Assembly: GCA_964505795.1 (NCBI GenBank)
Contig: CAZDJS010000002.1
Span: forward strand, 1 to 43,786
DNA: 43,786 nucleotides
Source: an uncultured Methanosarcinales archaeon
GTDB taxonomy: Archaea; Nanobdellota; Nanobdellia; Woesearchaeales; UBA525
Direction of reading: 5' to 3'
Shown here: piece by piece, positions 1,385 to 29,261 of the stretch
Position numbering within the stretch: position 1 is the stretch's first letter
Layout: each line of letters opens with the position of its first letter
Translations under genes and position numbers: made by a program
The notes under the pieces: generated by a model
The model's input: the letters and a program-made list of their open reading frames with translations, nothing else
What the model was told of the DNA's origin: nothing
The model's database searches: none

Positions 1385-1419
1385 TGTACCTACTTAATAA
1401 TTGACGACATCACTTAGTT

Positions 1420-1545
1420 ATAATATGTTGCCTTGGAGTAAAGACAGAAATCACACCGATTCATGCAGGTGTGATTTCGTAATCTCTGCGAGGGACTCGC
1501 AGTAAATCTCCGCAACATATTATTTGATTCTTTTGTCGCCAACTC
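1420..1545 (+). repeat. Structured repeat element, copy A (MITE-like or small RNA)
   Basis: It has 12-bp perfect terminal inverted repeats, ataatatgttgc (1420-1431) and gcaacatattat (1512-1523). Internal hairpins are gaaatcacacc/ggtgtgatttc and ctgcgag/ctcgcag. It shares conserved blocks with copies at 11184-11290 and 16027-16140. Confidence 0.7.
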
Positions 1546-2434: not shown

Positions 2435-2916
2435 GAGACCTTGACGCTAAATCCTGTTCCTTCAAAAAGAATTTTCGCCCCACCTCTGTTTTGTTTGCAA
2501 ACAATATTATTTGTTGTTATTTTTTCAAAGTTTCCTAATGGTTCTAAAATGCCGTCTTGAACAAGAAAGATGTTGTTTTTTGTTTCTGAGTCAAGCTCTG
2601 CTACTTGTTGTAACAGTACTTTTGTGTTTTCAGCGACTGAAAGACTAGATGTTATATAACCACCATTCGGCTCTTCTCCTATAAAACATATTGCTTGTGC
2701 TCCACATGGAATATTGAGTGTTTCTTCTTGGCGAACTCCTCTTGTGTCATAGGTTTCTTGTATTTCACTTAAAGCTCGTATGAATTGTGATTTCTCTGCC
2801 TCACATGAAGTATCAGAAAGATTTGTGATTAACTTCACACTGAGAAGAACAGTGGCTATAATAACTATTGAAACAAGGATAAATCCGAATACGTGTTGTA
2901 TTTGGGCACGAATCAT
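2431..2916 (-). CDS. Type IV pilin-like protein with class III signal peptide (161 aa)
   Basis: The N-terminus is MIRA|QIQHVFGFILVSIVIIATVLLSV. It has a 4-nt overlap with the giant gene upstream (2913-2916). Confidence 0.6.
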   Translation of the reverse strand: MIRAQIQHVFGFILVSIVIIATVLLSVKLITNLSDTSCEAEKSQFIRALSEIQETYDTRGVRQEETLNIPCGAQAICFIGEEPNGGYITSSLSVAENTKVLLQQVAELDSETKNNIFLVQDGILEPLGNFEKITTNNIVCKQNRGGAKILFEGTGFSVKVS

Positions 2917-5900
2917 TTTCCACCTTTCGTTTCATCAACAAACTCGTCTAATTCTGAAAAAGCATCTTTTTTCTTTTTTGCTTGTTCAGAGCTTTCTTTT
3001 GTAATAGTTTTAGACTCAGCATTATTTTGTTTAGACTCATTTTCTTGATTATTTTCTACTTGATCACTGTCTTCCTTATCTTGTTTTTGTGTTCCGTCAT
3101 CAAACGAGGACATGATCTTTGCTCTTTTTGCTTCTCGCTCTTGTTCTCGTTGTCTATAATTTTCAAGTTTCTCTTGCTCAAGTCGCTGTTGCTCTTGTAT
3201 TTGTTCTTGAGTTAATTGAGGAGGTCGTTGAGGAAAATCTTGTCTTTGTACATTCTGCTCTTGCCTTGAACGAATATCATAGGCAGTGTAAAGATAATAT
3301 CCTGAGCCCCCCATCAATACCACTCCGAGAATCATGAGAATGAGTGCAAGCCAAGAAAATCCTTCTTCAATTTCTGTAGGTGGATTATTTTGATTTCTTT
3401 CTTCACGATTAAAGCCACCATCTGAATCACTACCTGAACCACCATCTGAACCGCCACCTGAACCCTCATTACCTGGTCCTCCGAGCACGGTATTACACGT
3501 CGAAGTATCATAAGTACAATCAGCATTGCAAGAACTTATTGTTCCTGAGAATTCTGGATTATAAAATTGACAAGAACTAAGAGGAAGGTCCGTTCCGTCG
3601 CATTCTTCTCCTGTTTCAACTATATTATTTCCACAAACTGAGGAAGTTGGAGGAACGCTAATTGGTGGCCCGCAAGTAGAAACATCTAACTTACAAATTG
3701 ATGTACAAGAAGAAGCTGAACCTTCTCTTCCATAGATAGAACAAGCTACTGCGAACTCAGAATCGTCACATTCTTCACCTTCATTAAGCTCGCCGTTACC
3801 ACAAAGTGTAGGATCTGCTACTGGAGGAAGCGAACAAGAAGAAAGAACAGGAGTACAAAATGGAGTACACTCATCAAAAGTTCCTGAAAGTCCGACCTCA
3901 GAACAAGAAGCAGAACCTAAGAGAACTCCATCACAAAACTCTCCATTATCAAGAACACCATTACCACAAAGAGCAGGATCTGGAAGATCAGAACAAGTTG
4001 ATAAATCAGGAGTACAATCATTATTACACGAAGTTGGCGTTCCTTCTAAGCCGAAAAATGAGCAGCTTGCTGCAAACTCATCACCATCGCATAACTCACC
4101 AGTCTCTGCAACTCCATTACCACAAACCGGGTTTGATTGCTCTATCGTACAAGTATCAGAACAACCATCCCCTGATATAAGATTTCCATCGTCACATGCT
4201 TCGTCTTCATGCTGTGTTCCATCGCCACATATTGCTCTGTTCGTACATTCAAGAGCTCCATTTTCGTAAACTGTTATTATCTTTGTTTCTGAGGTTCCTG
4301 TGTTTCCTGCAGCATCAATTGGAGTAAATTGAACTGAAACTGAATCATTATAGAGGGTTGAGTCAAGCTCATAACGATCTGCTGTTGTGTTTGTTGTGTT
4401 TGTATCGATTGTTATCTGAGTTGTTACTGGAGAATTGTCTGTGATGTTAAACTCTATTGTTGTTGTCGCGTCTTTACAAACAAAATCATTTGCAACAGGG
4501 TTAATAATCGGTGCTATTGTATCAACACTAAAAGATATTGTTTTGAAAGACTGTTCTGCCAAAGAATTAGTACAGCGAACAAGAATAGAGTGCGCCCCTT
4601 CATCAAGCGTTACTAAAAGACCTGCTGCATGAACCCCTTGGTCATCTGCTGTCATTGAATTGTATGCTCCTGCAATTCCTGAATCAGGATCTCGATATTC
4701 ACAAATGCTTGTTGCTGATGGTCTCACAATAACGTCTGGTTGTGGATTGTTCGTGTATTGTTGTGGTGAGAGAACTTCAATTTCAGTGTTTGAAAAATCT
4801 ATTGTGATAGGGAGTGCTTTTGATATTATTTGTCCTGCCTTATCTGTACAAACAACTCTATAATCTAAGACTTGTGCTTGCTGTGAAGTTATTTCACTCA
4901 AATCAAGTTCGTGCTCGTGATCTGTTGTGTAGGTGTTTGCATCACTAAGGTCTTCACCATCAAAGGTAACTGTCGTGTCTTTGAGTAATTGACAAACTGT
5001 TTCTGTGTTTGTTGTTGCTGTAATTGTTGTTTTTCTACTTGTAAAATCATTCACAGGATTAGGGTCTGCACGTAGTTCCGTAATTGATGGTCTCTGAGTG
5101 GTTATTCCGAAATCAAGCACTTGGGTATGGATTGTTTCATCGTCTTCAACACAACGAATATGAACTGAACGATCAGTATTCACATTTTTAAATAGTTCGT
5201 GAATAAACCCATCTGTGCTTTGGGCTTGTTGATGACCTTCGTTCGGGTCGATTCCTGGCAAATCAAGTCGGAAGCCGCAAATCGCTTCTCGTTTTGTTTG
5301 AATGGTTATATCAAATGGGTCTGTATCAAAACCAAGCGGTGGTTCATAATATTGTATAAATGGTCCGGGATTACAAGCATCACTGTTTAGCTCTTGAAGT
5401 GTTGTTGTTACTGGGTTTGCTTGTGCAATATTCCCTGCCCTGTCATGAACATCAACTTCCCAAGTTAGTTCTTGGCTTGTAAAACTTGGAGTGGTCACTT
5501 CAACGAATCCACTTGTTGAATAACCCTGTTCCAATACTGTTGAGCCGTCTTTGAGAGTCCAATTAAATCCATGGACTTGGTCATTATCTTCTGCCTCAAA
5601 AAATGCTGTGGCTGTGTTTCCACAAACCGCCTCAGAAGCATTAATAAGGATGTTATTTGGGGGGATTCTATCTGTCGTAAAATTATATTCTATCGTTGTC
5701 TCTTTATTTTGTTGAGTGCAAGTTATTGTTGTTGTATAATCTTGTGAGGGATTGGTCGATACTTGTCTTGAATGAATTGTTCCCTCTTGGTTCATGAATT
5801 CTCCATCAAGTTCACAATCAGCAAATATGTTTGTTTGTGCTCGTATAACCACAGGGTCTGCATTCGTTAAGGGCTCTGGTTCAATAATACTAATTTCAAT

Positions 5901-6950
5901 TATTGCGTCATAATCAATTGTAACGAGAATGTCTTCTTGTGTTGAGCGTCCTGCAAGATTCGTACATTGTATTGTGTATTCTTTCTCTTGTCTTTCTGTA
6001 CTCGTTATTATTTCATTAATTCCTTCATCTGAACTATAATCCAAAATTTCAAGATGTTCTTGTTTGTAAGTGTCAAAATCTCCTTGTATCACATCGTCAA
6101 GGAAAAATTCTTCACTACTGCCTCTTTTTCGTATCGTACAAATAGTATCTTGATTAGTTTCAACAAGTAAACTTAGTGTAGGATCTTGCTCATTAAATAC
6201 TGTTGGTGGTGTGAGAGTAACAACTATTGTTGGTCCTTCTTCAAGAACTCCGATTGAAAATTGTTCAGTAAGAAGACGAGGAACTACAGCCCTGCTGAGT
6301 TTGTATCTTTGACAAAGTACACTTAAAGTGCTGCTTGTCGTTTCTAATCCGCTAATTTTGTGTCTCGTGCCTAAATTTGGCGCGGTGTGTTGATTCGGAT
6401 CACCACTCGGAGTGCTTGCACTCATTCTTGTGAGTGAAACGTGATTAAAATCGTTTGGGGGGTTTTGTCCAAGAAAATATTTACATTCTGCATTAAAAGG
6501 AAGTATTTCATCATCATTTCCGTACACGAAAGTTAATATGTTTACACTATATGGTGTGCTTTGTGCAAAGCCAGATGCAGGTGAGAGCATCATTGCGTTG
6601 AGTCCTGTTACGCTAAACTCGACTGTGTCTGGAATACTATTTGTGAGCCCGAGCGTGCTTCTCGCAACAACTTCAAAAGAGTATCTTCCTTCACCAAGTT
6701 CACCAGCAGAAGGACGTATTTCATATTCATTAGCAAAACCATCGTCTGCTGAAGGGTCATAAGCAAGGCCTATTCCTGTATTGGTTTCGAGAAAAATAAG
6801 ATTTGTTTGTGCATCAAGAATTTGTACTGGCTCATTATATGTTACTTTAATGACAGGGTCGGGAAAATTAACTAAGCCAAGGTCGAAGTCCGCCGCTAAA
6901 ACAGGGGTTGTAAAGAAAAGAATCAGAAGAAAAAAAGAAAAAATCTTCAT
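2913..6950 (-). CDS. Giant type I membrane surface protein (1345 aa) with Ig-like modules, Cys-rich repeats, a TM anchor and a charged tail
   Basis: It begins with a Sec-type signal peptide, MKIFSFFLLILFFTTPVLA|A. About 7 modules of roughly 100 aa each carry a conserved Cys pair. Five tandem CGNG-x-E-x-GE-x-CD six-Cys repeats follow, then a G/S/D linker. The TM helix FSWLALILMILGVVLMGGSGYYLY lies at about nt 3283-3365. The tail is about 120 aa and Q/E/K-rich. Confidence 0.85.
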   Translation of the reverse strand: MKIFSFFLLILFFTTPVLAADFDLGLVNFPDPVIKVTYNEPVQILDAQTNLIFLETNTGIGLAYDPSADDGFANEYEIRPSAGELGEGRYSFEVVARSTLGLTNSIPDTVEFSVTGLNAMMLSPASGFAQSTPYSVNILTFVYGNDDEILPFNAECKYFLGQNPPNDFNHVSLTRMSASTPSGDPNQHTAPNLGTRHKISGLETTSSTLSVLCQRYKLSRAVVPRLLTEQFSIGVLEEGPTIVVTLTPPTVFNEQDPTLSLLVETNQDTICTIRKRGSSEEFFLDDVIQGDFDTYKQEHLEILDYSSDEGINEIITSTERQEKEYTIQCTNLAGRSTQEDILVTIDYDAIIEISIIEPEPLTNADPVVIRAQTNIFADCELDGEFMNQEGTIHSRQVSTNPSQDYTTTITCTQQNKETTIEYNFTTDRIPPNNILINASEAVCGNTATAFFEAEDNDQVHGFNWTLKDGSTVLEQGYSTSGFVEVTTPSFTSQELTWEVDVHDRAGNIAQANPVTTTLQELNSDACNPGPFIQYYEPPLGFDTDPFDITIQTKREAICGFRLDLPGIDPNEGHQQAQSTDGFIHELFKNVNTDRSVHIRCVEDDETIHTQVLDFGITTQRPSITELRADPNPVNDFTSRKTTITATTNTETVCQLLKDTTVTFDGEDLSDANTYTTDHEHELDLSEITSQQAQVLDYRVVCTDKAGQIISKALPITIDFSNTEIEVLSPQQYTNNPQPDVIVRPSATSICEYRDPDSGIAGAYNSMTADDQGVHAAGLLVTLDEGAHSILVRCTNSLAEQSFKTISFSVDTIAPIINPVANDFVCKDATTTIEFNITDNSPVTTQITIDTNTTNTTADRYELDSTLYNDSVSVQFTPIDAAGNTGTSETKIITVYENGALECTNRAICGDGTQHEDEACDDGNLISGDGCSDTCTIEQSNPVCGNGVAETGELCDGDEFAASCSFFGLEGTPTSCNNDCTPDLSTCSDLPDPALCGNGVLDNGEFCDGVLLGSASCSEVGLSGTFDECTPFCTPVLSSCSLPPVADPTLCGNGELNEGEECDDSEFAVACSIYGREGSASSCTSICKLDVSTCGPPISVPPTSSVCGNNIVETGEECDGTDLPLSSCQFYNPEFSGTISSCNADCTYDTSTCNTVLGGPGNEGSGGGSDGGSGSDSDGGFNREERNQNNPPTEIEEGFSWLALILMILGVVLMGGSGYYLYTAYDIRSRQEQNVQRQDFPQRPPQLTQEQIQEQQRLEQEKLENYRQREQEREAKRAKIMSSFDDGTQKQDKEDSDQVENNQENESKQNNAESKTITKESSEQAKKKKDAFSELDEFVDETKGGK
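3495..4235 (-). repeat. In-frame tandem Cys-rich repeat modules (1 short + 4 full, about 50-56 aa each) inside the giant gene
   Basis: The units start at approximately nt 4235, 4127, 3972, 3804 and 3639 on the minus strand. They read ICGDG..., VCGNGVAETGELCDG..., LCGNGVLDNGEFCDG..., LCGNGELNEGEECDD... and VCGNNIVETGEECDG.... Each has 6 Cys with similar spacing. Confidence 0.8.
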
Positions 6951-9106: not shown

Positions 9107-9332
9107 ACCACCACTTTTTCTCGTCGAAACGTATATTTTTCTGCGAAAAAGACATTTATAAAACTTGTTGTAGGAGGTGTTTTCATATACCCTCCTGCTA
9201 AGCGAGTTTGTGCTTACACATTGTTTCGATCAAACAACGTCACTCTCGTTCCTGTGTTTGACTTCGTCAAACAGTGGATGAACGCCTATACTATTACTGA
9301 TTGTTGCGAGCGTAGATTTAGTTTTTCGACGG

Positions 9333-11119: not shown

Positions 11120-11183
11120 AAGGTTTTCTTTTTTTAGTTCTTTAAATGTCTTGCGAGAATTTAGATAGCAACATTATTTAATT

Positions 11184-11290
11184 ATAATATGTTGCGCAAA
11201 GACAGAAATCACACCGAGCAGAGGGGATTTCGCAATCTCTGCACTCACAGCAAATCTCCGCAACCATGTGATTCTTTTGTCGCTAACTAA
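11184..11290 (+). repeat. Structured repeat element, copy B (partly decayed)
   Basis: It shares these blocks with copy A: ataatatgttgc, aaagacagaaatcacaccga, gatttcgcaatctctgc, cagcaaatctccgcaac and attcttttgtcgctaac. A right-end-like fragment, gcaacattattt, lies immediately 5' at 11168-11179. Confidence 0.65.
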
Positions 11291-12996: not shown

Positions 12997-15984
12997 TTAA
13001 GGACATTGATAGATTATGTTTGGATCGAAAGGATTATTGTTTTGTTCTGGAGGGCATTCGGAATCAATAAAATCGAATACTTGGCACGTTCTTATTTGTG
13101 GACTCGGGGATATACAAAAATTATTTTGGCCTGGACAATCAAATTGGTTTTCACAATTTGAAAAACTACAACTCACGTGATTGTAAGGGTTTAAAAGAGG
13201 TCCTAAGTCTTCGTTTGCTGTTTTATCTGACGCATCCCAACATCCTTTGCTGTTACCTGAACCTTGTGATTCATAATGAATTTGGTATCCTCCTTGTCGA
13301 GGTTCGAGAGTAACAATAGCCCAGTTTGAGCTTCCTCCAGGATTATTATATAGTTCAATAGCTTCTTGAGTGTAAGGATCGTAAGGAATTATTTTAGTTA
13401 AGTCCCCGTCAATTGTTCCATCATCACCATCCCAGTCACAAAGATGTCCTCCATTTCCTGATTGTTCACCGCTGGCTTCGACAATTATTTCTGCATCTCC
13501 AAACTCACCAATTCTTGCTGAGAAGGTGTACTTTCCTTGAACGTGCATAACATTTGTTGTTGATGGACAAGCGTTCTGACAGTCTGCACAGGTGTTAATA
13601 TCTTCTGTATCTGGGCTGCAAAAACCATCGAAATTGCATGCTTCTCCTGTACTTCCACCATCATCAACACAGGTGTTATCTTGATTGTCAATAAGTCCGT
13701 TGCAATTATTATCAATTCCATCGCCACAGATTTCTTGCTCTCCGGGATTAATTGTTTCATTGTTATCATCACAATCGAATGCTTGAGGACTGTCTGTACA
13801 TTCTGTGACGCTCAGGTCTTGTAAGAAGCAGGACCAATCATCAACGAGGTATTGGAAGGTTCCTGCAGGAAGGTCATCAATTTCTTTGTCACTCTCAACA
13901 ATTCCTTCTTGTGTGACATCATTAAGTGTTCCTTCGCAGCTTGAGTAGTCGAAGTCTTGACTCAGACCCGGTGTGTCTTGTGTTATGTAGACTATATCTT
14001 CACCTTCTGTATTGATAATGATGTTTGTTGCTGCGCCTTCATCAAGTCTGCTCTTGTAGGTTTCTTCAAGGCTTTCAATAACTTCAATACTTCCTTCTGA
14101 ACGCTCAGCATCAATGTGATACAACGCATTTGCTTCTATACTCTCGAGAATATTGCTGTTGATTGTGATGAGTTGTGCGTTGTTTTGTAAGAGTGCTTCT
14201 TTGTGGGTTATTTCCGTTCCCGAAACAAGCTCTGCTTTGCTGTACTTTTCTGGTGTTGTCGTTGCAACTCCATCAAGAAGACCTGGAGCAATAATTCCTT
14301 CGTGAAGGTCTTGAGCGTAATAGAGTTTTGCGCCGACACTGTTCATTCCTGCGCGGCACGCTTGATAACCGCGATCATATTGTGCTCTTGGTTGTCCTTT
14401 ATCATGATAGACAAAGGTGTTTGTTTGTGTGATTGTTGCAAGACCTGCGCAAGTAAAGGCGAGCTCGAGACGTGCTTCATAGTTTTGATTTGTCGGTGGT
14501 GCTCCAAAGTCTGCTTCTGCGAGTTCGCCAGCATCGAGTAAGAAGATGGGTTGTCCACCATCATTTCTAATTTCTTGCATTACTTCTCTGTATGTTGTTG
14601 CTTGTGTGCTAAAGGCGTGTGCACTGAGATTGCAGTCATCGCCATACGAGCAAGCGTCTCCTGAAAGAGCAGTATCTAGCCCCTCTGCAAGATCAGTTAA
14701 ATGCGGGCTCACAACTATTTCTTGATAGCAATCATACTCTGTTTTATCTTGAGCGAGACAAACTTCAAATGTTGATTCGTAATTTCTTCCAGCCTGGGTA
14801 ATTTCCGCAGTGTCAAAGTCGCTTGTAACTAATGGTTGAAAAAATGCACTAATATTTTCTGTTAATCCATCCATAATTGTGTACCGAAGAGTGTTACTCA
14901 ATGTTTGCAATTCGCTAGGCAATCCTTCTCCTGTAAAGTAACCATCACCATCTGCGTCTTCGCAATTAAAACAGCCTGAAGTGTCAGCCTCGCAAGTATC
15001 TGTGTTACAACTTATTTCTCCAAAAGAAAAACCAAGGTCTTCACAACTAACACCACTCTCAAATCCGTCTTGGTCTGCTTCACAAGCTTCGCCAAACTCC
15101 AATATTTCGTTTCCACATACCGCTCCGGGTAAAGGCGTTTCGCCGTTTGGTTCTATTCTGAGTCGTGCAGTAATTTTCTTCCACTCGTTCGGTGCAAGAT
15201 TATCAAAGCGAATGACTTGTGTATTATCAGGTCCAAGTTCGTAGCTTCCTTGTACAAGTTCTCGAATATCAAAAGCAAAGTTTTTGAAAAGAATAATTCC
15301 TTGTCCGTTAGCTTGTGCGTTTTCTGCGTGATAGAAGCCTTGTATTTCTCGTGAGCCGTCTCCTGTTGCTTTTGCAAAGTATCCTCTTGTGAACGCTTCT
15401 ACATCTTGAATTTGTTCCGGTTCAAAACCAAAAAGGTTTCTGAAGAAGTCAAGAAGTCCATCCCATATTGTTGTGTCAAAGTTTGGTGTGAATGAATACG
15501 TAACTAAATAGGTTACTGGATTGCCAAGACGATAATAGAGTTGAACTCCAAACCCATTATCGACTGCTCCTTCACAATGCCACCAGTTATTATCAAGTTC
15601 TGTAGCATCATCACAAGCAGCTAAATTAAGGTCTTCTTCTCTAATATGATTTGTATTATCAATGTCTGGTTGGTAGTAGTCTTTGAGATGATTTATGACT
15701 TCGCTCGCTCCTTCAAATGAAAATATTGTTGCTTTTGCATCACTATCTATAAGGCTCATCGAACATACTGCAGGATCTGTTGGATACCCAGGAATGTTAG
15801 GGAGAAGTTTTGGATTTGTGAGAACATCAGCAGGCCCGCATTCTATCGTGTAATCTTGGTTTTCTGCAAGTTCCATGAGTGTGACAGCGTAGTGTGCTTT
15901 GAGTTCGTTTGCTTCTATTGCTTGCCCGGAGCTTACAGAGAGGAGAAGAAAGAGCATAATAAGTATTTGTTTAGCACCTACCAC
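12997..15984 (-). CDS. Secreted Cys-rich protein (995 aa)
   Basis: The start is GTG and the signal peptide is ...ILIMLFLLLSVSSGQA. It has one CGNEILEFGEACE... six-Cys module (about nt 15105-15122) like those in the giant gene. It also has a CDDNNETINPGEQEICGDGIDNNCNGLID motif (about nt 13675-13775). There is no TM anchor. Confidence 0.8.
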   Translation of the reverse strand: MVGAKQILIMLFLLLSVSSGQAIEANELKAHYAVTLMELAENQDYTIECGPADVLTNPKLLPNIPGYPTDPAVCSMSLIDSDAKATIFSFEGASEVINHLKDYYQPDIDNTNHIREEDLNLAACDDATELDNNWWHCEGAVDNGFGVQLYYRLGNPVTYLVTYSFTPNFDTTIWDGLLDFFRNLFGFEPEQIQDVEAFTRGYFAKATGDGSREIQGFYHAENAQANGQGIILFKNFAFDIRELVQGSYELGPDNTQVIRFDNLAPNEWKKITARLRIEPNGETPLPGAVCGNEILEFGEACEADQDGFESGVSCEDLGFSFGEISCNTDTCEADTSGCFNCEDADGDGYFTGEGLPSELQTLSNTLRYTIMDGLTENISAFFQPLVTSDFDTAEITQAGRNYESTFEVCLAQDKTEYDCYQEIVVSPHLTDLAEGLDTALSGDACSYGDDCNLSAHAFSTQATTYREVMQEIRNDGGQPIFLLDAGELAEADFGAPPTNQNYEARLELAFTCAGLATITQTNTFVYHDKGQPRAQYDRGYQACRAGMNSVGAKLYYAQDLHEGIIAPGLLDGVATTTPEKYSKAELVSGTEITHKEALLQNNAQLITINSNILESIEANALYHIDAERSEGSIEVIESLEETYKSRLDEGAATNIIINTEGEDIVYITQDTPGLSQDFDYSSCEGTLNDVTQEGIVESDKEIDDLPAGTFQYLVDDWSCFLQDLSVTECTDSPQAFDCDDNNETINPGEQEICGDGIDNNCNGLIDNQDNTCVDDGGSTGEACNFDGFCSPDTEDINTCADCQNACPSTTNVMHVQGKYTFSARIGEFGDAEIIVEASGEQSGNGGHLCDWDGDDGTIDGDLTKIIPYDPYTQEAIELYNNPGGSSNWAIVTLEPRQGGYQIHYESQGSGNSKGCWDASDKTANEDLGPLLNPYNHVSCSFSNCENQFDCPGQNNFCISPSPQIRTCQVFDFIDSECPPEQNNNPFDPNIIYQCP

Positions 15985-16026: not shown

Positions 16027-16140
16027 GTTGACTAGCGAGAAAAGAAATATATAATATGCTGCGGAGAGTTGCTGCGAGCGCAGAGATTACGAAATCCCAC
16101 CTGCTCGGTGTGATTTCTGTCTTTGCGGCAGCATATCGTG
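16027..16140 (-). repeat. Structured repeat element, copy C (inverted relative to A and B)
   Basis: The reverse complement reads gatatgctgccgcaaagacagaaatcacaccgagcaggtgggatttcgtaatctctgcgctcgcagcaactctccgcagcatattat.... The terminal repeat atatgCtgc/gcaGcatat carries a compensatory change relative to copy A. Confidence 0.7.
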
Positions 16141-16382: not shown

Positions 16383-16540
16383 TAATTATTTAAAGTTCTG
16401 CATCAAATAATTTTTTTAGATGATAGCAAATACGTATATGGAATCTGTCTATGTGCTAGTTGCTATTATCAAAAAGACTTGCTAATGCTCCTGTATTCTT
16501 GGGGTGTTGCAAGGTCGGTTTCTTATCTTGCTAACACCTC

Positions 16541-16879
16541 ATGCGCAGTAGTATGGCATTTCGAGGTGGAAACATGCATTGTGTAGAATGTGAACATAAC
16601 ATTGTCAACCCAATCTGTCCAGATTGCCTCTCTGAGGGGATTGCTTGTTGGGTTGGAGAGCGAATCGGGCCAGCGGCTGCTAGTGCTGTCTTTGATATTA
16701 GTGCATCGCTGAAGTATCCAGGCGGAACGACAAAGTGCATTAAATGTCATGCAGCTATGAATATTTGTGGTTATTGCTTTAGCGATGAGCTTTTGAGCAT
16801 TCTTCAAAACCACCCTGTTGTTATGGCACAGTTCATGTATTATATGAATTTCGAGGATCGTGTTTCTCAACAACATTAA
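16541..16879 (+). CDS. Small zinc-finger protein with four CxxC pairs (hypothetical)
   Basis: The motifs CVEC-x10-CPDC ... CIKC-x6-CGYC occur in the plus frame. The likely start is MHCVEC at 16574. Competing minus-strand ORFs lack motifs. Confidence 0.5.
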   Translation: MRSSMAFRGGNMHCVECEHNIVNPICPDCLSEGIACWVGERIGPAAASAVFDISASLKYPGGTTKCIKCHAAMNICGYCFSDELLSILQNHPVVMAQFMYYMNFEDRVSQQH

Positions 16880-17004
16880 TTTCTTTTTTTTGAAAATTCA
16901 TTTATAAAAAAACAAAAAATAACCATATAGAAAATAAATAAGTATTTAAAAACATTTATAAAAGAAGTTTTGCTTCTGGAGAATAGAAGTAAGGGGGTCA
17001 TACA

Positions 17005-20948: not shown

Positions 20949-21857
20949 CTAGAATATCATCGGCGTTACCCAGACTTCAAGCACTCCCGCAATGAATGTG
21001 ATGACGAGCGCGAGAAGTAAAAGGTCTGCTGAATCAAGGAGGATGTGTTCAAACTTCTTTGTTCCAAAGTCGTGTCTAATTGCTGCTATACTAATTATCC
21101 CCCCTGCAAGTCCTGCCATGAAGTATGCAAGTATCTCAGGAATGCCATGTATTGAGTATCGTAAAAGTCCATACGCTCCAATGCTTAAGTAATGGCTCAT
21201 TCCCACTGCTCCTGTTGTTGCTGCCACTTCTGCGAGTCCTGATCGTATCGTGTTTCCTATTGCTGCTCCGATAACGCTTGCGTTCCATGAGAGTATAAAT
21301 ATCGCACCACTTCCGTAGAGGAATGAGAATAAAACACAAAACACCATCACACGAACGTTGTTGAGAAATATCATGCTAAACCTGTTGAATTCTCCTGATA
21401 CTTGTCCCGTTATTGAGCCTGGTCCGTTGATTGTGTTGATTGTTTCTGCTTGGCTTTGAAAAAGCACACTTGTGGTTTCAGGAGCGAGAGCAACATACCA
21501 AAGGGAAAAAGCAAGCACCATTCCGATAAAGAGGTACATAAAGACTTTGAGTGCTTTTGTGTGTTCTTTGAGTAGCCAGTGTTCTGAGCGTCCCTGTAGG
21601 TCTTTTTCTTCCTCCATCATAATAATTTGGTAAATAAGAGGTATTGCTGCCATTGCACTAAGAAAGACCATTATCATGCTCGAGTAGGTTTTGAAAACGA
21701 GCAGACTCAGAAATATTGCAAGTGTGGTGTAGACAAAACCCAATACTATCATTTTCGTCGGTCGTTGTTCTGCAGCCAAAGGCGATGTGAAAGATTCGAA
21801 GACCATATTTCTTTTTTCTTTGTTCGTTTTATTATCTTTTTGGAAAAAACAAGCCAA
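20949..21857 (-). CDS. SpoIIM-like (DUF95) integral membrane protein
   Basis: It is multi-TM with FLNNVRVMVFCVLFSFLYGSGAIFILSWNASVIG and HGIPEILAYFMAGLAGG, typical of the SpoIIM family. The likely start is Met18 at 21806. Confidence 0.55.
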   Translation of the reverse strand: MACFFQKDNKTNKEKRNMVFESFTSPLAAEQRPTKMIVLGFVYTTLAIFLSLLVFKTYSSMIMVFLSAMAAIPLIYQIIMMEEEKDLQGRSEHWLLKEHTKALKVFMYLFIGMVLAFSLWYVALAPETTSVLFQSQAETINTINGPGSITGQVSGEFNRFSMIFLNNVRVMVFCVLFSFLYGSGAIFILSWNASVIGAAIGNTIRSGLAEVAATTGAVGMSHYLSIGAYGLLRYSIHGIPEILAYFMAGLAGGIISIAAIRHDFGTKKFEHILLDSADLLLLALVITFIAGVLEVWVTPMIF

Positions 21858-21865
21858 AAAGTTTG

Positions 21866-21877
21866 TTTTCTATATAG
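21866..21877 (+). promoter_or_regulatory. TTTTCTATATAG palindrome-core TATA-like promoter motif
   Basis: This exact 12-mer recurs at 30244, 32322 and 43182. Here it lies 46 nt upstream of the aIF2-beta ATG in a divergent intergenic region. Confidence 0.45.
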
Positions 21878-21922
21878 TTGTTTATCCATAGTTTTAAAAA
21901 CAAAACCTTGTTGCTAAATAAC

Positions 21923-22348: not shown

Positions 22349-25300
22349 TTACATAAAACTCCCTAAGCCTTCTTGTCGTTCTGCATCTTTACCGAAGTTT
22401 CCTTCTACACGTCGCTTTGTAAGCTCGAGGTCTTGTTGCAAGTATGCTGAAACATTGAATTCTTTTGCTATGCGCAAGCTCGGTTCTAAGTATTTGATAA
22501 CACTTCCTTCTGAAATAGTAAAAATTATTTTTCCATTGCACGTTTTACAATTTCCTTTGAGTGGTGGCCTGCGGTATTTTGCGTTGCATTTTACGCAGCG
22601 AAACTGTTGTCGCGAAAATTTTCCTAAGTTTCCTTTTGTGTCTCGAATAAAATGTTTTGTGATAATAAGTGTGGCAACATCACTCTCATCAACCGCAACT
22701 ATTTTTCTTGCAAGAGCGAGTTGCGAGTCCATTTTTTCTTCCATGCTCGGTAGTGTTTTGTACGAGCTACATAAGACTCCGTCGTTGATGTTTGTAAAAT
22801 CGTGTGTGAAACCCATCCCTTCAAACTGTGCTGGTGTGCCAAGGTCTTCTTCAAGACGTTTAATTTGTATTTCCCAAGGTTTCTTATATTGCTCACACGC
22901 TTCATAAAACTCGAGCGGATAGCTCCATACAGTATCAACATTAAAAGCCATATCGTCAACTTCTGCCGGATTCAACCAATAGGTTAATACTAATGGTGCG
23001 TCCATTGTTCCTCCTCGTGATTCTGGCAAGTATTTTTGACTAAAGTTCAAGAAGGCATCCATGAGAAGAAGAAAACAACTCTCATCACCGTCACAATCTC
23101 GTCGCATCGCTGCGTGAAAAAGTGGATGTGCGAGAAAACCTTGTGTTTTGCTAAATCCTATGATTCGTCCGACTATTCCTGCTGAGGTGTGTGGTGCGAG
23201 CCCAATGATATAATGGCCGACAAGATCTTGTTTTGATTCGAGATTATAATATTCTTTCAATCCATAAAACTTTGTGAGTAATTCATCAACGAATTTTGTT
23301 GTGTGAAAAAGAACATCGTCACAAGCCTCATCAGGATAGCCTGGCGTTTCACAACAAGGTAAGACAACATCTTGCGGAAACAATTCAAGAACTTGATTCT
23401 CGTCCTCAAGTTCTTTTCCGTAGCAATCTTTATCATATCCTAATTCTTTAAGTCTGTGAACACTCACTCCAACTTCAACAGGTTTAAAATGAGTGAGTGT
23501 GACTTCACTCGCGTCATAGCGTACAGTTCCATCTTTGTTCACGTGAACGTTGTGTTTTGCTCTGAGTATTCCTTTTGCTATGTGTTCAGGAATGTGACTT
23601 TTGTTGCTGGTTCCTCGCACTCCTTTAATAAGGTCAGGATAGGTTTTTATTCCTAATCGTTTAATAGTTTCATGAAAAATTCTTTTTATGGGAACATCCC
23701 AAATTTCGTAATCTGTTTCTGTGGTTTCTCCTTTGTAGTTTGTCATTTGGGTTTTTACTTTGTCTGTTTTTTCATCGCAAACTTCGCAACGAAAGAACGG
23801 AGTGAGTATATCGCATTTTTTGCAATGGTTTTTTGGAAAAGAAGCGTTCACGTATCCTTCTTCGAGCGCTGCTTGAAAACATCTGAGTCTCCCTCCTTGT
23901 TCTCCAACAGGAAAAAGTGTGTGTGGACTCCCTGTCATTTTTCTCATCTTTGCTTTTTCAGGACGTCCCATCCTGCTTCCGATAAATATCCCTGACTTAT
24001 CTCTTATCTTGAGTGTTGAGAATTCTTGTATTGTTTCGAGCGTGTTTTTTTGCGAGTCAGGGATTGTTTTTGTTGTCCCAAACATTGTTTTTATGATGAG
24101 CTTCCATTCCTCGCTCAGAAGTATTTCTTTCTTGTCGTTAACAGTGTATGGTATGCCAAAACGATCAAAGTCTTCATCTGAATCAATATTTTTTGTGTTG
24201 TTCGTTGCGAGGATGAGTTTTTGTAAGGATGTGACAGTCCCTTCTTTCCAAAACGGAGTCCATTTCGGGTGTAATGGTGTGTTTGTTTCTTGTGCTATTG
24301 TTATTGCTTCTTGTGCTGAGGGTTTTATTGTTAATGGGTTGTCGATGAACTTTTGAACATCGATACTTGTTGTTGCTCCATCGTCAATTGCTTTTTTGAG
24401 TTCTTGCACCCACCATTCTTCACAATACCCTGCAGGAATAAGTGTGTGTGCCCTGTCAAAGAAGTCGCCGTAGTTTACAAGAACATCCCCAAAATAATGA
24501 ATTTTTTCTATTTTGTTTGCTATTTCTCTTGCTTGTTTTTCAGTTTCTACTTGTACAAGAGAGCCGTCTTTGAGTTTGACTATTGGTCCTTCTATTGTGT
24601 CGCAAGGTGTAAATGCTGCTGCTTTTCCTGGTCGTTCTACTTTAAGTTGTGTTCCTGTTGCGATAAAACCATCACTCACCACCATTGTCGCTGGGTGTAT
24701 TGCTTGTCCACTGTAGCCTGATGCTCTGCTTCTTCCGTACCTGAGTCTGAATGCTCCTGGTCTGAGCGGATGACCAAAGACCGGCCTTCCCGCGACTATA
24801 TCTTTGATGTAGGTGTAGTCAGGACTTATCTTTGCTCCGTCTTCTTCGCCTCCTTTTGCTTTCATTTTCTTTTGTAAGTTCAAGAAGTCTTCAAGAAAGT
24901 TCCAGTCTTGCATTTCCATCTCATCCCCCCATTCACTCAGGCGCTTCCAGAGTTTTGGTCCTTTGAGTGGAATACAACTACTATGAATAAGACAATACCC
25001 ACTTCTCAAGTTGTTTGTTTCGACTCGTGGGAGGTCTTTGAGGTTAACATTACTTACTTCCCATTTTTCGCTCGGGTCTCCTGCTATTTCTACTGGGATG
25101 TTTTCCATGAGGAATTTGCTTTCTTCTTCGCTCGGAAAGTATTGGAGGTTTGCAACGAAGCGATGGTAGTCTTCAAGTTCTGCTGCGCAACGTAATGCTT
25201 CTTTTTCTGTCGGGTCATACTTTGCAAAACCCATTTTTTTTCGTACATAATCTGCAATAAGAACACTCACTGACGCTGCTGTTCCTCCTGCGTTTCTAAT

Positions 25301-25765
25301 CGGTCCTGCATAATTTATTCTGAAGAATTGTCCTTTCTTGTCGCGTCTCTCTTTAATTTCGATGCTGGTCAGTCCTTCTATCGGACTACTCACTACTCCA
25401 AGCGTTACGTAAGCGAATCCGACACGAACTCCTACTTCAATTGCTTCGAGTGCTGTTTTGAAGCCACAATATTTTTGTTCTGCTATTTCGTGTGCAATAA
25501 CCATTCCTACTCGCCAATCAAGAATAGAGTATTGTTCTTCGAGCTCAATGATTCTCTCGGCAACTCCGCTTCCTTTGATTTGTGGTGCTATTACTGAAAT
25601 GAGCCCTTCTACTCTTTCAGCAAGTGTTTCAGCAAGTGTGATTTCAACATCAGTATGAGGGTCATATCCTTTTTTTCTTGCTTCTTGTGCTTGTTTAAGC
25701 GCTGTGAAGCAGTCTTCTTTGAAGGTGTTGAAATATTTGTTAATTTTTGGACTGCAGACTATCAT
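22349..25765 (-). CDS. DNA polymerase D (Pol II) large subunit DP2
   Basis: It is 1138 aa with the characteristic Zn motif CVKCNAKYRRPPLKGNCKTCNGKIIFTISEGSVIKYL. It has a 4-nt overlap with the DP1 gene. No intein-like insertion is evident. Confidence 0.9.
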   Translation of the reverse strand: MIVCSPKINKYFNTFKEDCFTALKQAQEARKKGYDPHTDVEITLAETLAERVEGLISVIAPQIKGSGVAERIIELEEQYSILDWRVGMVIAHEIAEQKYCGFKTALEAIEVGVRVGFAYVTLGVVSSPIEGLTSIEIKERRDKKGQFFRINYAGPIRNAGGTAASVSVLIADYVRKKMGFAKYDPTEKEALRCAAELEDYHRFVANLQYFPSEEESKFLMENIPVEIAGDPSEKWEVSNVNLKDLPRVETNNLRSGYCLIHSSCIPLKGPKLWKRLSEWGDEMEMQDWNFLEDFLNLQKKMKAKGGEEDGAKISPDYTYIKDIVAGRPVFGHPLRPGAFRLRYGRSRASGYSGQAIHPATMVVSDGFIATGTQLKVERPGKAAAFTPCDTIEGPIVKLKDGSLVQVETEKQAREIANKIEKIHYFGDVLVNYGDFFDRAHTLIPAGYCEEWWVQELKKAIDDGATTSIDVQKFIDNPLTIKPSAQEAITIAQETNTPLHPKWTPFWKEGTVTSLQKLILATNNTKNIDSDEDFDRFGIPYTVNDKKEILLSEEWKLIIKTMFGTTKTIPDSQKNTLETIQEFSTLKIRDKSGIFIGSRMGRPEKAKMRKMTGSPHTLFPVGEQGGRLRCFQAALEEGYVNASFPKNHCKKCDILTPFFRCEVCDEKTDKVKTQMTNYKGETTETDYEIWDVPIKRIFHETIKRLGIKTYPDLIKGVRGTSNKSHIPEHIAKGILRAKHNVHVNKDGTVRYDASEVTLTHFKPVEVGVSVHRLKELGYDKDCYGKELEDENQVLELFPQDVVLPCCETPGYPDEACDDVLFHTTKFVDELLTKFYGLKEYYNLESKQDLVGHYIIGLAPHTSAGIVGRIIGFSKTQGFLAHPLFHAAMRRDCDGDESCFLLLMDAFLNFSQKYLPESRGGTMDAPLVLTYWLNPAEVDDMAFNVDTVWSYPLEFYEACEQYKKPWEIQIKRLEEDLGTPAQFEGMGFTHDFTNINDGVLCSSYKTLPSMEEKMDSQLALARKIVAVDESDVATLIITKHFIRDTKGNLGKFSRQQFRCVKCNAKYRRPPLKGNCKTCNGKIIFTISEGSVIKYLEPSLRIAKEFNVSAYLQQDLELTKRRVEGNFGKDAERQEGLGSFM

Positions 25766-27180
25766 TGTTCACCTAAATAAAAATTCATCATCGTCATTTG
25801 TCGTGTTTGTAAATTAATTATTGGGAGTCGTGCTGGTTCTGGTTCGAGTCCTCTTTTGAGTTGGTCTTCTGTGATTCCTGTCCATGCTCCTGCGTTAACC
25901 ATAGTGATGTTACGATAATTTCCGTAGCTAACCGCGTGGATGTGTCCTGTGAAATAAAAGTCAGGTATTTTGTCAATAACAAGTGGGTCTTCTTCATCGT
26001 CAGGAATATATCTGTTGCTTCCATGTGTTACTGCAAGGTGTCTTCTTTGGAGTTGGAATTTCATTATTCTATCTACTTTTTTGAGTCCTCCTGCATTTCT
26101 AATTGCAGGAATATTGTCTGCATAGTAAGGAAGACTGTAGCCGTGATATATGAGAATATCAAACCCGGAAAAGGTGTTTTTTTTCCCTATATTAACAAGC
26201 GATGGACTACTCACAAGCGTCATGTTTGGTATTTCGTAGACTGCTTTTGCGAAGTCTTCATAGAGTCTTCCTTGTGGTTCAGCGATTCTTCCTGCATCGT
26301 GATTTCCTGGACAAGCAACTATTTCTATGTGCTCAGGTAATAGTTTGATTAATTTTGCAAATTCTTCGTATTGTTCAGTCACGTCAGAAATTGAAAGGTC
26401 GTTTTCTTGTCCTGGGTAGACACCCGCTCCTTCGATAAGGTCTCCTACAACAACTGCATACTTAACTTTTCTTGCGATGTTTTTTTGTTTTTCATCTCCT
26501 ACTTCTCCTCTGAGCCAAGAAGCCATGTTTTTCCATTCTTCATACAAAAAATGTTTGTTTCCTACTTGAGGATCTCCAATAACTATCATATATTCTTCGT
26601 CTTTTTGTTTCTTGAGTTCTTTACCAATAGGAATATCTGGATGTATTATTTTGTCTGCAAAAACTGTTCCTTCTTTTGCTGACCCTGTTATTCCTATAAC
26701 TTCGTCGAGAACTAAATTTTTTGCTTGCTCAAGAAGTTTTGCGTCTCTTCCTGTAATTATTATTGTTGCTGTTGCTGTTCTGTCTTCGAGTTTGAGAATA
26801 ATATTGCCATTTTTTGTAAGATTTTTTTCTTCCACCATTCCTATGAGTGCGACGTTTCCGTTTTGAAGTCGGGCTATACTTGTTACTCCTTGAAGTTCTT
26901 GTCGTGCTCGTAACATTTTTGCGAGTGCTTCGAAGCGGTGTCGCCAATACTTGACAAAATGATCATAGGTTCGTTTTTTTGGTTTTTTGTCGTAGGATTG
27001 TATGATGTGAATATTGTTAGTTTTTTCAACGAAAGCCTTGTTTTGCTTTGTTTGGAATTGTTCGAGAATGTGTTCTGGAATCTCTTCTTCTGTTTCTTCT
27101 CCGTTTTGTAATTTATTAAGAAGTTCTGGCGTGACAAGAACGCCTGCGCTCATTAGTTCGCTTACTATTTTTTGCTCCAT
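25762..27180 (-). CDS. DNA polymerase D small subunit DP1 (calcineurin-like phosphoesterase/exonuclease)
   Basis: The motifs are IGDPQVGNKHF, VVGDLIEGAGVYPGQ, CPGNHDA and GHIH. The N-terminal OB region is IGMVEEK.... Confidence 0.9.
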   Translation of the reverse strand: MEQKIVSELMSAGVLVTPELLNKLQNGEETEEEIPEHILEQFQTKQNKAFVEKTNNIHIIQSYDKKPKKRTYDHFVKYWRHRFEALAKMLRARQELQGVTSIARLQNGNVALIGMVEEKNLTKNGNIILKLEDRTATATIIITGRDAKLLEQAKNLVLDEVIGITGSAKEGTVFADKIIHPDIPIGKELKKQKDEEYMIVIGDPQVGNKHFLYEEWKNMASWLRGEVGDEKQKNIARKVKYAVVVGDLIEGAGVYPGQENDLSISDVTEQYEEFAKLIKLLPEHIEIVACPGNHDAGRIAEPQGRLYEDFAKAVYEIPNMTLVSSPSLVNIGKKNTFSGFDILIYHGYSLPYYADNIPAIRNAGGLKKVDRIMKFQLQRRHLAVTHGSNRYIPDDEEDPLVIDKIPDFYFTGHIHAVSYGNYRNITMVNAGAWTGITEDQLKRGLEPEPARLPIINLQTRQMTMMNFYLGEQ

Positions 27181-27206: not shown

Positions 27207-28406
27207 TTATATGCCGAGCTCGGTTGTGAGTATGTTTTTAATTTCTGGTATAATATTTTCTGGTAATGAAAGTGATATTTCTCTTGTTCTTCCAAAGCGT
27301 CCTTTGCTGATGACTTTCGCGTTGATGAGTCCTTGCATGTCAAGGTCTGCAATAATATCTGAAACTCGTCGTTGCGTTAATGGTCTGAGCGAGCTTGCAT
27401 TGCACACTTTCCAATACGTATCATAAATGTCTCCTGTGTTTGTTTCTTTTTCGTGATTCATGACGCTGTAGAGTGTTGCTTGATATTGTTTTGGTTGTGT
27501 TTTTACAACATCAATAAATCGTTCGTACTCAATTTTTTCTTCTGCTCTATCAATATGTTTTATCGAGATGACTTTATTTTGTTCTCTCTCGGCAAGTTCT
27601 CCTGCTACGCGTAAAAGTTCGAGTGCTCTTCTTGCATCTCCGTGTTCTCTTGCTGCATAAGCAGCGCATTTTTGTATTGTTCCTTCTTCAAGCACTCCTT
27701 TTTCAAAAGCTTTTTCTGCTCGTTCTCTGAGTATTTCTTGGAGTTGTGGTGCGTTGTAGGGTGGAAAAATAAGCTCTTCTTCTGAAAGGCTGCTTTTTAC
27801 ACGCGGATCAAGATTATTTGCAAAGCCTAAGTCATTACTTATTCCTATGATGCTCACTTGTGCGTTTTTGAGTTCTGTGTTAATTCTTGTAAGATTATAG
27901 ATGAGTTCGTCTCCTGTTTTTCTGATAAGATGATCTATTTCGTCAAGAACAAAAACGACGAGTTGTTTTTCCTCGTCTATTGTGTCAAAGAGTATTTTAT
28001 AGACTTCGTCTGTTGGTAAGCCTGTTACTGGTATTGCTTTGTTAAAGAATCGTGCGAGTGCCGCTATTAATCGGTATTCTGTGTCTGCGACTTTTTTGAG
28101 CTTGCAATTGAGATAGAATATTTTTATTGGGATGTTTTGTTTTTGAGATACTTTCACTATTTGTTCGCTGATTGCTTTTACAGTTGCTGTTTTTCCTGTT
28201 CCTGTTTTTCCGTAGACAAAGAGGTTGCTTGGTCTTTCGAGGCGTAGTGATGGTGCGAGTATGCTTGATATTTGGTTTATTTGTTCGTCTCTGTGTAGTA
28301 TTTTTGATGGTATGTAATTGCATTGAAGTACTTGTTTGTTAAGAAAGAGATTTTCGCTATCTAGGTATTGTTCGAAGTATTGTGCTATGTTATTTGTTTG
28401 ATCCAT
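27207..28406 (-). CDS. cdc6: Orc1/Cdc6 replication initiator
   Basis: It has Walker A YGKTGTGKTA, Walker B VFVLDEIDHL, sensor regions and a C-terminal winged helix (...RRVSDIIADLDMQGLINAKV). Confidence 0.95.
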   Translation of the reverse strand: MDQTNNIAQYFEQYLDSENLFLNKQVLQCNYIPSKILHRDEQINQISSILAPSLRLERPSNLFVYGKTGTGKTATVKAISEQIVKVSQKQNIPIKIFYLNCKLKKVADTEYRLIAALARFFNKAIPVTGLPTDEVYKILFDTIDEEKQLVVFVLDEIDHLIRKTGDELIYNLTRINTELKNAQVSIIGISNDLGFANNLDPRVKSSLSEEELIFPPYNAPQLQEILRERAEKAFEKGVLEEGTIQKCAAYAAREHGDARRALELLRVAGELAEREQNKVISIKHIDRAEEKIEYERFIDVVKTQPKQYQATLYSVMNHEKETNTGDIYDTYWKVCNASSLRPLTQRRVSDIIADLDMQGLINAKVISKGRFGRTREISLSLPENIIPEIKNILTTELGI

Positions 28407-28794: not shown

Positions 28795-28834
28795 TTCTTG
28801 TCTTTTTTTCATATATAATATAATAAATTTCTAT

Positions 28835-29260: not shown

Positions 29261-29261
29261 A

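Follow-up and report, generated by a model that had tools for sequence, protein, structure and literature searches.

The question raised by this locus was why the same short, palindromic piece of DNA should stand three times between the genes of a single stretch of 43,786 nucleotides, the whole of which is called the window here. The initial annotation had offered three answers, namely a MITE, a family of small RNA genes, or an RNA processing or regulatory element. The first of these was favored by our analysis. With a chance somewhat above even, the three copies (A, B and C) belong to a lineage-specific family of small, non-coding, palindromic and MITE-like mobile repeats that are non-autonomous, whereas the options that involve a functional RNA went unsupported, with no Rfam match and with covariation at the level of shuffled alignments.

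The copies had been placed at 1420-1545, 11184-11290 and, inverted, 16027-16140, and were said to share long conserved blocks. Alignment bore this out. The 20-mer TCGGTGTGATTTCTGTCTTT had three exact occurrences in the window and no others at up to three mismatches (about 0.01 expected by chance), and GCAGAGATTRCGAAATC was likewise present three times. Further blocks common to the copies were GYTGCGGAGA and GCGAsAAAAGAA. The limits of the unit had to be redrawn, however, since homology continued beyond both termini: GCGAsAAAAGAA sat outside one terminus in all three copies, and outside the other terminus copies A and B had about 15 nt more in common. Therefore, the units were asymmetric and about 110-140 nt long, rather than the earlier estimate of about 105-125 nt. 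In the following list, ori1 denotes the "sense" orientation, which is the minus strand for copies A and B and the plus strand for copy C.

Positions 1405..1544, minus strand (ori1): copy A, homologous with copy B from about 1405; covariance-model score of 90.5 bits.
Positions 11169..11290, minus strand (ori1): copy B, with a degraded far terminus and a degraded TATA-like site; 92.6 bits.
Positions 16030..16140, plus strand (ori1): copy C, inverted relative to A and B; 109.7 bits.
Positions 1440..1459, minus strand: the invariant 20-mer TCGGTGTGATTTCTGTCTTT in copy A, containing the main hairpin's 3' arm as well as a U-rich tail.
Positions 11198..11217, minus strand: the invariant 20-mer TCGGTGTGATTTCTGTCTTT in copy B, identical in all three copies.
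Positions 1528-1539, minus strand: the conserved outer block GCGACAAAAGAA of copy A, overlapped by a BRE/TATA-like site.
Positions 11272..11283, minus strand: the outer block GCGACAAAAGAA of copy B, which reads TTCTTTTGTCGC on the plus strand.
Positions 16035..16055, plus strand: the outer block GCGAGAAAAGAA of copy C followed by AATATATAAT, together the BRE/TATA-like site of this copy.

A covariance model made from the three copies gave its members 90-110 bits, while the next-best unrelated position of the window stayed below 11 bits; with the filters off, the model found no fourth copy in the window. Identity among the copies was 78-85% over the unit and reached 91% between B and C over a 68-nt core. 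The copies had a GC content of 41-47% compared with 32% for intergenic DNA. They were also non-coding. Every reading frame was shifted between copies because of 5-nt indels, and the intact 33-aa ORF of copy C had no relative among 1.84 billion representative proteins; a small protein was therefore rejected. A, B and C form a genuine repeat family whose sequence, as far as we can tell, is undescribed so far, and most likely it is a known kind of thing and not a new RNA class.

Inverted repeats were found at the ends and inside of the units as follows.

Positions 1420..1431, no strand assigned: terminal arm ATAATATGTTGC of copy A, 12 nt, 100% complementary to 1512-1523.
Positions 1512..1523, no strand assigned: terminal arm GCAACATATTAT of copy A, the partner of 1420-1431.
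Positions 1447-1457/1468-1478, no strand assigned: 11-bp hairpin GAAATCACACC/GGTGTGATTTC of copy A with a 10-nt loop, 100% complementary.
Positions 1486-1492/1496-1502, no strand assigned: 7-bp hairpin CTGCGAG/CTCGCAG of copy A with a 3-nt loop, 100% complementary.
Positions 16054-16062/16128-16136, no strand assigned: terminal arms ATATGCTGC/GCAGCATAT of copy C, 9 bp, with a single compensated change of a U-A to a C-G pair.
Positions 16079..16127, plus strand: in copy C, the long imperfect hairpin that all copies had in ori1, with the pairings GCAGAGAU/GUCUUUGC, GAAAUC/GAUUUC and CACC/GGUG.

Thus, the perfect 12-bp termini and the 11- and 7-bp hairpins that had been described for copy A were all present, and so was the compensatory change said to keep the terminal pairing of copy C. 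The accompanying statement that stems were kept while loops varied was only partly right. Compared with B and C, copy A had an insertion of 5 nt that lengthened its 7-bp hairpin. In the other two copies this hairpin was shrunk to a palindrome of 4-5 bp, the 5-nt indel having removed bases of both the stem and the loop. One mismatch was present in the 11-bp hairpin of copy C, and two mismatches and one G·U pair in that of copy B. The far terminus of copy B was reduced to GCAAC (5 bp), and this copy had an extra palindrome (11168-11181/11182-11195) that came from an inverted copy of the terminal motif lying outside, as a 14-nt partner. The consensus structure in ori1 was a terminal stem around the long imperfect hairpin, whose GCAGAGAU/GUCUUUGC stem held two invariant G·U pairs. 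The core could also be described as an imperfect inverted doublet, GCAGAGATTACGAAATCCCACC/GGTGTGATTTCTGTCTTTGC, with units of about 20 nt.

The genes of the window set the frame in which these structures have to be read. They included TBP, MCM, Orc1/Cdc6, primase and a Hef-type helicase/nuclease, all archaeal, and two ORFs of 1138 aa (22349-25765) and 472 aa (25762-27180) that shared 90% clusters with the PolD subunits DP2 and DP1 (Metallophos) of L063. The best relatives of the MCM protein bore the names Woesearchaeota archaeon or Nanoarchaeota archaeon. Judged by this gene content, the host is an archaeon of a Woesearchaeota-like DPANN lineage. Since TBP, MCM, Orc1/Cdc6 and PolD made the window archaeal, bacterial promoter and terminator logic was inapplicable to it, and a reading of the copies in terms of sigma-70 -35/-10 boxes and an intrinsic terminator was dropped. 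The same correction applied to the implicitly bacterial "pilin operon" of the initial annotation: the four pilin-like proteins had archaeal class III signal peptides (MRAQ/MRGQ, then a hydrophobic helix).

Copy A did fill the only gap in the cluster of four pilin-like genes, as had been reported, lying between pilin-like genes 3 and 2, right next to the stop codon (1544-1546) of the pilin-like gene of 296 aa. Copy B lay between the gene of a 164-aa protein of unknown function and the gene of a Memo-like enzyme. Copy C was bordered by the start of the gene for a 995-aa surface protein and, on its other side, by the 3' end of a ThiS-like gene. All three copies were therefore intergenic, but a position beside genes for exported surface proteins, which had been attributed to the whole family, was found only for copy A and on one side of copy C. 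Each copy began 0-30 nt past a stop codon and lay upstream of the next promoter. All six flanking genes were on the minus strand and copy C was inverted beside them, which excluded a function as leader or riboswitch that depends on the direction of the gene, and a 5'-UTR element was rejected accordingly.

If the copies were mobile, then filled and empty sites might be expected among close relatives, and one such case was found at copy B; on the sides of copies A and C, the contigs of relatives stopped short of the orthologous sites. The Memo-like enzyme, through proteins that matched it at 90% identity or more, led to contigs of three congeners (L149, L150 and L151). The spacer at site B, measured from the stop codon of the 164-aa gene to the Memo promoter TTCTCGCAAGACATTTAAA, was 153 nt in the window, including copy B, and only 37 nt and 1 nt in L150 and L151, respectively; the comparison covered these two contigs, as L149 started about 10 nt upstream of the Memo promoter. 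The flanks were conserved, both at the end of the 164-aa gene and in the promoter TTCTCGCAAGACATTTAAA, which was identical in all four sequences. Thus, the occupancy of site B was polymorphic. Nucleotide identity of the Memo gene was 78-82% between the window and the congeners and 82.5-84% among the congeners. The window was thus an outgroup to the three congeners, and the empty site B alone could not separate gain from loss. The age of the copies was more informative. At four-fold degenerate sites the window and the congeners were only 44-59% identical, while the copies were 78-91% alike; hence the copies were younger than the species split, at least for some of the insertions. Unless selection or gene conversion keeps them alike, the copies probably diverged well after that split, and with the same proviso an insertion in the lineage of the window would be the simpler account of site B.

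The search for further copies, which the initial annotation had expected to be informative, yielded none. The covariance model, run with filters off, found no copy in 64 kb of DNA from the relatives, a biased sample of short-read contigs, which tend to break at repeats. The word GGTGTGATTTCTGTCTTT retrieved 62 + 80 loci from public genome and metagenome contigs, none of which was a copy, although an exact 18-mer misses diverged copies; these loci were chance matches or, in the case of the JAAUXV01 metagenome contigs, members of an unrelated family of repeats. Two exact-word scans of a viral collection with other words gave chance matches only, and BLAST against plasmids and phages gave no match. 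Thus, the family appeared to be confined to this lineage, with the caveat that diverged copies could escape the 18-mer. Target-site duplications and orientation had also been named as diagnostic. The orientation was mixed, but no duplication was found at any copy for any plausible pair of boundaries, these being approximate, and the left junctions (ATATG|AGTTG, AAATT|AGTTA and GTTGA|CTAGC) shared no target.

Taken together, the empty site B, the greater similarity of the copies than of neutral sites, the mixed orientation and the exclusively intergenic location favored MITE-like repeats. The same reading drew on a repetition far beyond chance, on the terminal inverted repeats and hairpins of a unit without coding capacity, on the nearly equal folding of copy A on its two strands, on the lack of copies in the 64 kb from relatives, on the like behavior of element X described below, and on a published census with MITE-dense Woesearchaeal genomes (PMC11602168). 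This reading was based on three copies in one 43.8-kb window. The missing duplication, the asymmetry of the unit, the lack of a transposase gene in the window and of any known autonomous partner counted against it, as did the one compensated change in the terminal stem and the better folding of copies B and C in ori1 by 8-9 kcal/mol, which would fit an RNA too.

For a MITE-like family we infer the mobilizing enzyme and the insertion chemistry as follows. The repeats would have spread by insertion into the short intergenic spacers of this Woesearchaeota-like DPANN archaeon. A transposase or recombinase, presumably encoded elsewhere in the genome, would recognize the terminal motif ATAATATGYTGC/GCARCATATTAT or their hairpins, and would transfer the unit, in one orientation or the other, to spacers that lie right behind a stop codon and ahead of the next promoter. 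Once inserted, the copies may decay, with transitions giving rise to G·U pairs, mismatches in the stems, and 5-nt indels at the hairpin tips; in copy A, the indels at the hairpin tips would have lengthened the palindromes. Effects on neighboring genes would be a by-product and might come from the BRE/TATA promoter-like end or from the hairpin and U-rich tracts, which could pause or end transcription in the pilin-like cluster. The missing duplication would be consistent with a mechanism of the IS200/IS605 or REP type, which depends on hairpins and leaves no duplication, but no positive support for it was found here.

Archaeal MITEs are exemplified by the SM1-SM4 elements of Sulfolobus. The present family was like prokaryotic MITEs in its size (about 100-140 nt), lack of coding capacity, terminal inverted repeats, intergenic location in either orientation, several diverged copies, and presence or absence between close relatives. 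In a census of 183,232 genomes, the median MITE length was 104 bp and a Woesearchaea genome was among the densest archaeal ones, with 105 elements per Mb (PMC11602168). Three copies in a single window of 43.8 kb corresponded to a comparable figure of about 70 per Mb. The family differed from MITEs in that no target-site duplication was found, conserved sequence lay outside both terminal repeats, and no cognate insertion sequence was identified.

Several other families of repeats were similar in part. Bacterial intergenic palindromic repeats, such as the Correia elements of Neisseria, ERIC, RUP/BOX and REP/REPIN, are transcribed and affect their neighbors. Like these, the copies were structured intergenic repeats of 100-150 nt at gene ends, possibly with promoter- or terminator-like sequences, but they had an archaeal host and no sequence similarity to any of them. 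Correia elements have a TA duplication and 26-bp terminal repeats, neither of which was present here. REP/REPIN sequences consist of an inverted doublet of about 20-25 nt with a GTAG-type head and are accompanied by a RAYT gene in the genome; the core of our family likewise consisted of two units, each about 20 nt long and inverted relative to each other, but it had no GTAG head, and no RAYT gene was seen in the window. The PATEs of haloarchaea, derived from IS200/IS605, have subterminal hairpins, no duplication, a conserved tetra- or pentanucleotide target at the left junction, and a TnpA/TnpB partner. An archaeal host, hairpins near asymmetric ends and the missing duplication were common to both, while the window had no TnpA/TnpB, the left junctions had no conserved target, and the two internal hairpins were dissimilar.

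Among the alternatives, the one that survived best was that the copies were paralogous genes for a small RNA, although we considered it unlikely. Each copy would then form its own, self-contained unit of archaeal transcription in ori1. The block GCGAsAAAAGAA and the A/T-rich motif would serve as BRE/TATA, transcription would start about 23 nt downstream near GCGAG, and the product would be a hairpin RNA of about 50 nt, from GCAGAGAU to GUCUUUGC, with the invariant U-rich tract at its end; it could work through antisense pairing or through the binding of a protein. The putative promoter was assessed with a BRE/TATA weight matrix derived from 17 promoters, chosen by eye in the gene-upstream regions of the window.

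Positions 1521..1536, minus strand (ori1): BRE/TATA-like site ACAAAAGAATCAAATA of copy A; matrix score of 8.7, within the top 0.05% of positions.

The homologous ori1 sites, composed of GCGAsAAAAGA and an A/T-rich motif, scored 8.7 in A, 6.8 in C (top 0.15%) and 4.6 in B, which covered a range from the top 0.05% to the top 0.5%, while the same matrix gave no consistent promoter-like site in the other orientation. Moreover, outside the three copies GCGAnAAAAG was present in the window only at another promoter-like site and once within coding sequence, and the similar boxes GCGAAAAG/GCGAAAGG were found upstream of the TATA boxes of real genes. The signal was suggestive of a promoter but weak, and the three sites were homologous and not independent. 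On the other hand, the TATA-like site of copy B was degraded, and the predicted start fell inside the region of terminal stem plus hairpin, past the 5' arm of the terminal stem. Therefore, an RNA made from the ori1 promoter would not contain the conserved terminal stem. A canonical T6-9 terminator, as used elsewhere in this genome, was missing behind the element.

Folding and conservation were similarly divided with respect to a small RNA. Copies B and C folded better in ori1 (-32.3 and -40.9 kcal/mol) than in ori2 (-24.3 and -31.9 kcal/mol, respectively), as did the consensus (-26.1 versus -21.6 kcal/mol). The two invariant G·U pairs, the elevated GC content and the invariance of the 20-mer were in line with an RNA as well. 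However, the covariation that the compensatory change had seemed to promise came down to one compensated pair among three sequences, and 284 of 500 column shuffles did as well; there was thus no statistical support for selection on pairing. The stem mismatches of B and C were uncompensated. Rfam 15 had no family for the copies at the gathering threshold, nor in permissive scans of all three, in which snoRNA models matched at 12-14 bits against gathering scores of 39-75 and the best H/ACA model at 16 bits against 55. Neither TGATGA nor CTGA boxes of the C/D type occurred on either strand of any copy. An H/ACA pocket was absent, the internal loops of the consensus hairpin being only 1-3 nt, with AUA following the terminal stem, and no tRNA-like fold was found in the copies. 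The known RNA families were therefore rejected. In addition, no complementary target existed in the window at up to three mismatches, and the element was lacking at the orthologous site of the congeners and in the 64 kb of DNA searched from them.

A somewhat less probable variant combined mobility with function. The unit could be a mobile, self-contained cassette for archaeal transcription, with a promoter of the BRE/TATA type, about 50 nt of hairpin RNA and a stop rich in U, that inserted copies of itself past the stop codons of a streamlined DPANN genome and rewired the expression of neighboring genes. The readings as a MITE-like repeat, as a small RNA and as an element with effects in cis are not mutually exclusive.

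Slightly more doubtful again was the proposal that the copies were cis-acting RNA elements kept for their effect on neighbors, either as an attenuator or terminator composed of a hairpin and a U-tract, or as a site of RNA processing or stability. They might act, for example, at the junction of pilin-like genes 3 and 2 (copy A) or behind the 164-aa gene and the ThiS-like gene, at their 3' ends, and their palindromic form could let them work in either orientation. Their place 0-30 nt behind stop codons and ahead of the next promoter suited such a role, and so did the occupation of the sole gap in the pilin-like cluster by copy A. A stable hairpin was followed by a T-rich run in both orientations (TTTCTGTCTTT in ori1 and TTCTTTTSTCGC in ori2). 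The usual terminators of this genome were plain T6-9 runs behind most stop codons, and the genes with a copy behind them were without such a run. However, archaeal termination is not known to need hairpins, and plain T-runs were what the genome otherwise used. The T-rich runs of the copies were interrupted and gave no sign of terminating transcription, the congeners kept the same gene junction without the element, and a role in cis would leave the origin of the copies unexplained.

We regarded it as very improbable that the copies were sites at the DNA level, double-stranded or cruciform, for a host protein such as a regulator of surface genes or a site-specific recombinase. Copy A was a perfect Watson-Crick palindrome, and its folding energy was nearly the same on the two strands (-45.1 and -44.1 kcal/mol, z of about -5.7), as would be expected of a palindrome at the DNA level; the invariant 20-bp block and the location of two of the three copies next to surface-protein genes could be explained in the same way. 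Nevertheless, no recombinase or dedicated regulator adjoined the copies, copy B had no surface-protein neighbor, and the element was missing in congeners that retained the same genes. The copies also lay 10 and 5 kb apart and were unlike the AT-rich origin repeats beside Orc1/Cdc6. Three further candidates were rejected outright: origin recognition boxes by this same spacing and dissimilarity (copies 5-10 kb apart), an integron attC site by a GTT/AAC core order that was the reverse of attC, and retron or DGR repeats by the lack of a reverse transcriptase and by differences between copies that included indels.

The A/B/C family was not the only structured DNA behind stop codons in the window.

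Positions 30985-31162: element X, a single long foldback of 178 nt with a 17-bp outer stem and a z of about -10 on both strands.

Element X had no Rfam match and started at the stop codon of a TraB-like gene. The orthologous spacer in L155 was 46 nt compared with 200 nt in the window, and the downstream promoter TGCAATAAGTATAAAAGGA was conserved. Like A, B and C, element X and its relative in L064 were palindromic, GC-rich, intergenic and begun at a stop codon, and X was absent from the orthologous site of a congener; X differed from the family in its length and in forming one long foldback, closed by an outer stem of 17 bp. At the very start of L064, beside a ThiS-like gene, stood a sequence that matched an end of X over 25 nt with 2 mismatches. 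It occupied the spot where the window has copy C. The stretch L064:1-45 had been considered as a diverged orthologue of copy C, and this was rejected since its BLAST match was to element X. The 3' portion of the L064 sequence, TTTCTGTGCGGAGCGTCCCAGCATA, resembled both X and copy C (TTTCTGTCTTTGCGGCAGCATA). In BLAST, X did not significantly match any of the three copies, and a common origin of X and the family was only a possibility. Another insertion, at about 9177-9332, made the spacer from a stop codon to a conserved promoter about 156 nt longer than in L149; it had only local hairpins and was left unclassified. Thus, spacers behind stop codons in this genome have repeatedly gained GC-rich structured DNA. 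The contigs of two relatives ended at or beside the sites of such elements.

DPANN genomes are very small and gene-dense, and the forces that shape their scant intergenic DNA are poorly described. No new class of system is opened by this family. What it does offer is a case in which the recent activity of mobile elements in Woesearchaeota can be studied, in a window where at least two palindromic families (A/B/C and X) and the unclassified insertion at 9177-9332 lay between a stop codon and the next promoter and were absent from the corresponding spots of sister species. For annotation, such repeats break short-read assemblies, and software that predicts genes or RNAs may take them for RNA genes. 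Should the promoter-like end be active, the repeats might supply new promoters or attenuators beside genes for surface structures. If the copies were mobile cassettes with a promoter and an RNA of their own, then copy A would split the pilin-like cluster and give the downstream gene a promoter and a structured leader. The scarce intergenic DNA of this lineage would then be made up in large part of recently acquired structured elements, element X and the insertion at 9177-9332 among them.

Apart from the probably MITE-like repeat family, the window contained a second palindromic element (element X), and one spacer carried extra DNA relative to its orthologue in a related species.

30985-31162: element X, a GC-rich foldback of 178 nt
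9107-9332: spacer with extra DNA at about 9177-9332, as compared with the orthologous spacer of contig L149

Element X started at the stop codon of the TraB-like gene, and the orthologous spacer of another relative (L155) was without it. Its 36-nt arms were imperfect, with an outer stem that was perfect over 17 bp, and its folding z-score was about -10, alike on both strands. Rfam gave no match for this element. An X-like end was found next to the ThiS-like gene in another related contig (L064:9-34).

The 9107-9332 spacer, which separated a conserved promoter from the stop codon of the 311-aa gene, was longer than its L149 orthologue by about 156 nt. Several local hairpins were present in this spacer, as was a strong BRE/TATA-like site, GCGAAAAAGACATTTATAAA, at 9143 that was directed rightwards. 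The spacer also contained ATTGTTGCGAGCGTAGATTTAG, which bore a faint likeness to the repeat-family end GTTGCGGAGATTT.

An exact 14-nt match to the terminal motif of the repeat family (GCAACATATTATTT, 38244-38257) was located within the first gene of a toxin-antitoxin-like module, in which nucleotidyltransferase and HEPN-domain genes lay side by side (38029-39115). With an E-value of 0.04, this match was probably due to chance.

The region 27207-29281 was a probable replication origin, where a 1-kb spacer with a GC content of 25% came after the Orc1/Cdc6 gene and held two arrays of tandem repeats.

27207-28406, minus strand: Orc1/Cdc6 gene
28833-28966: 38-nt repeat, 3.5 copies, in the spacer beside Orc1/Cdc6
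29178-29259: 11-nt unit CAAAACTAACC, 7.5 copies, in the same spacer

The MCM gene of several close relatives (P0006, P0007, P0017) harbored an intein with a LAGLIDADG domain, and the MCM of the window had no intein.

The pilin-like cluster adjoined the genes for two very large proteins, both of which had Cys-rich DUF4215/MopE-like motifs with a period of about 165 nt.

2913-6950: 1345-aa protein, secreted or anchored, with repeats at 3595-4126
12997-15984: 995-aa protein, secreted or anchored

The 75-aa ORF at 32403-32630, for which Pfam gave no match, encoded a small, internally duplicated protein: two direct repeats of 92 nt (32412-32620) were 72% identical and 117 nt apart. At the contig end, a truncated tRNA gene (43735-43786) retained its 5' two-thirds and was probably tRNA-Arg UCU because its anticodon loop was CUUCUAA.

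The promoter region of the Memo-like gene (TTCTCGCAAGACATTTAAA, 11120-11145) was the same in four species (the window, L149, L150 and L151), between which four-fold degenerate sites were 44-59% identical. Its TTCTCGC part resembled the reverse complement of the outer block of the repeat family, GCGAsAAAAGAA.

Another motif, CTATATAGAAAAYAA, with the palindromic core CTATATAG, recurred in promoter-bearing spacers in either orientation.

16914-16937: CTATATAGAAAAYAA site
21856-21878: CTATATAGAAAAYAA site
30234-30256: CTATATAGAAAAYAA site
32312-32334: CTATATAGAAAAYAA site
about 43160: CTATATAGAAAAYAA site

The contigs of two relatives (L153 and L154) started exactly at this motif, and therefore it was also repeated in those genomes. 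One possibility is that the motif is a site for a shared regulator; another is that it serves as a bidirectional TATA element. Finally, the spacer between the ThiS-like and zinc-ribbon genes (16383-16575 versus L064:281-485) showed about 87% identity between the window and the L064 species, which exceeded the 78-80% of their coding DNA. Rfam gave no match for this spacer. Candidate explanations for its conservation are an unannotated RNA and a regulated leader.
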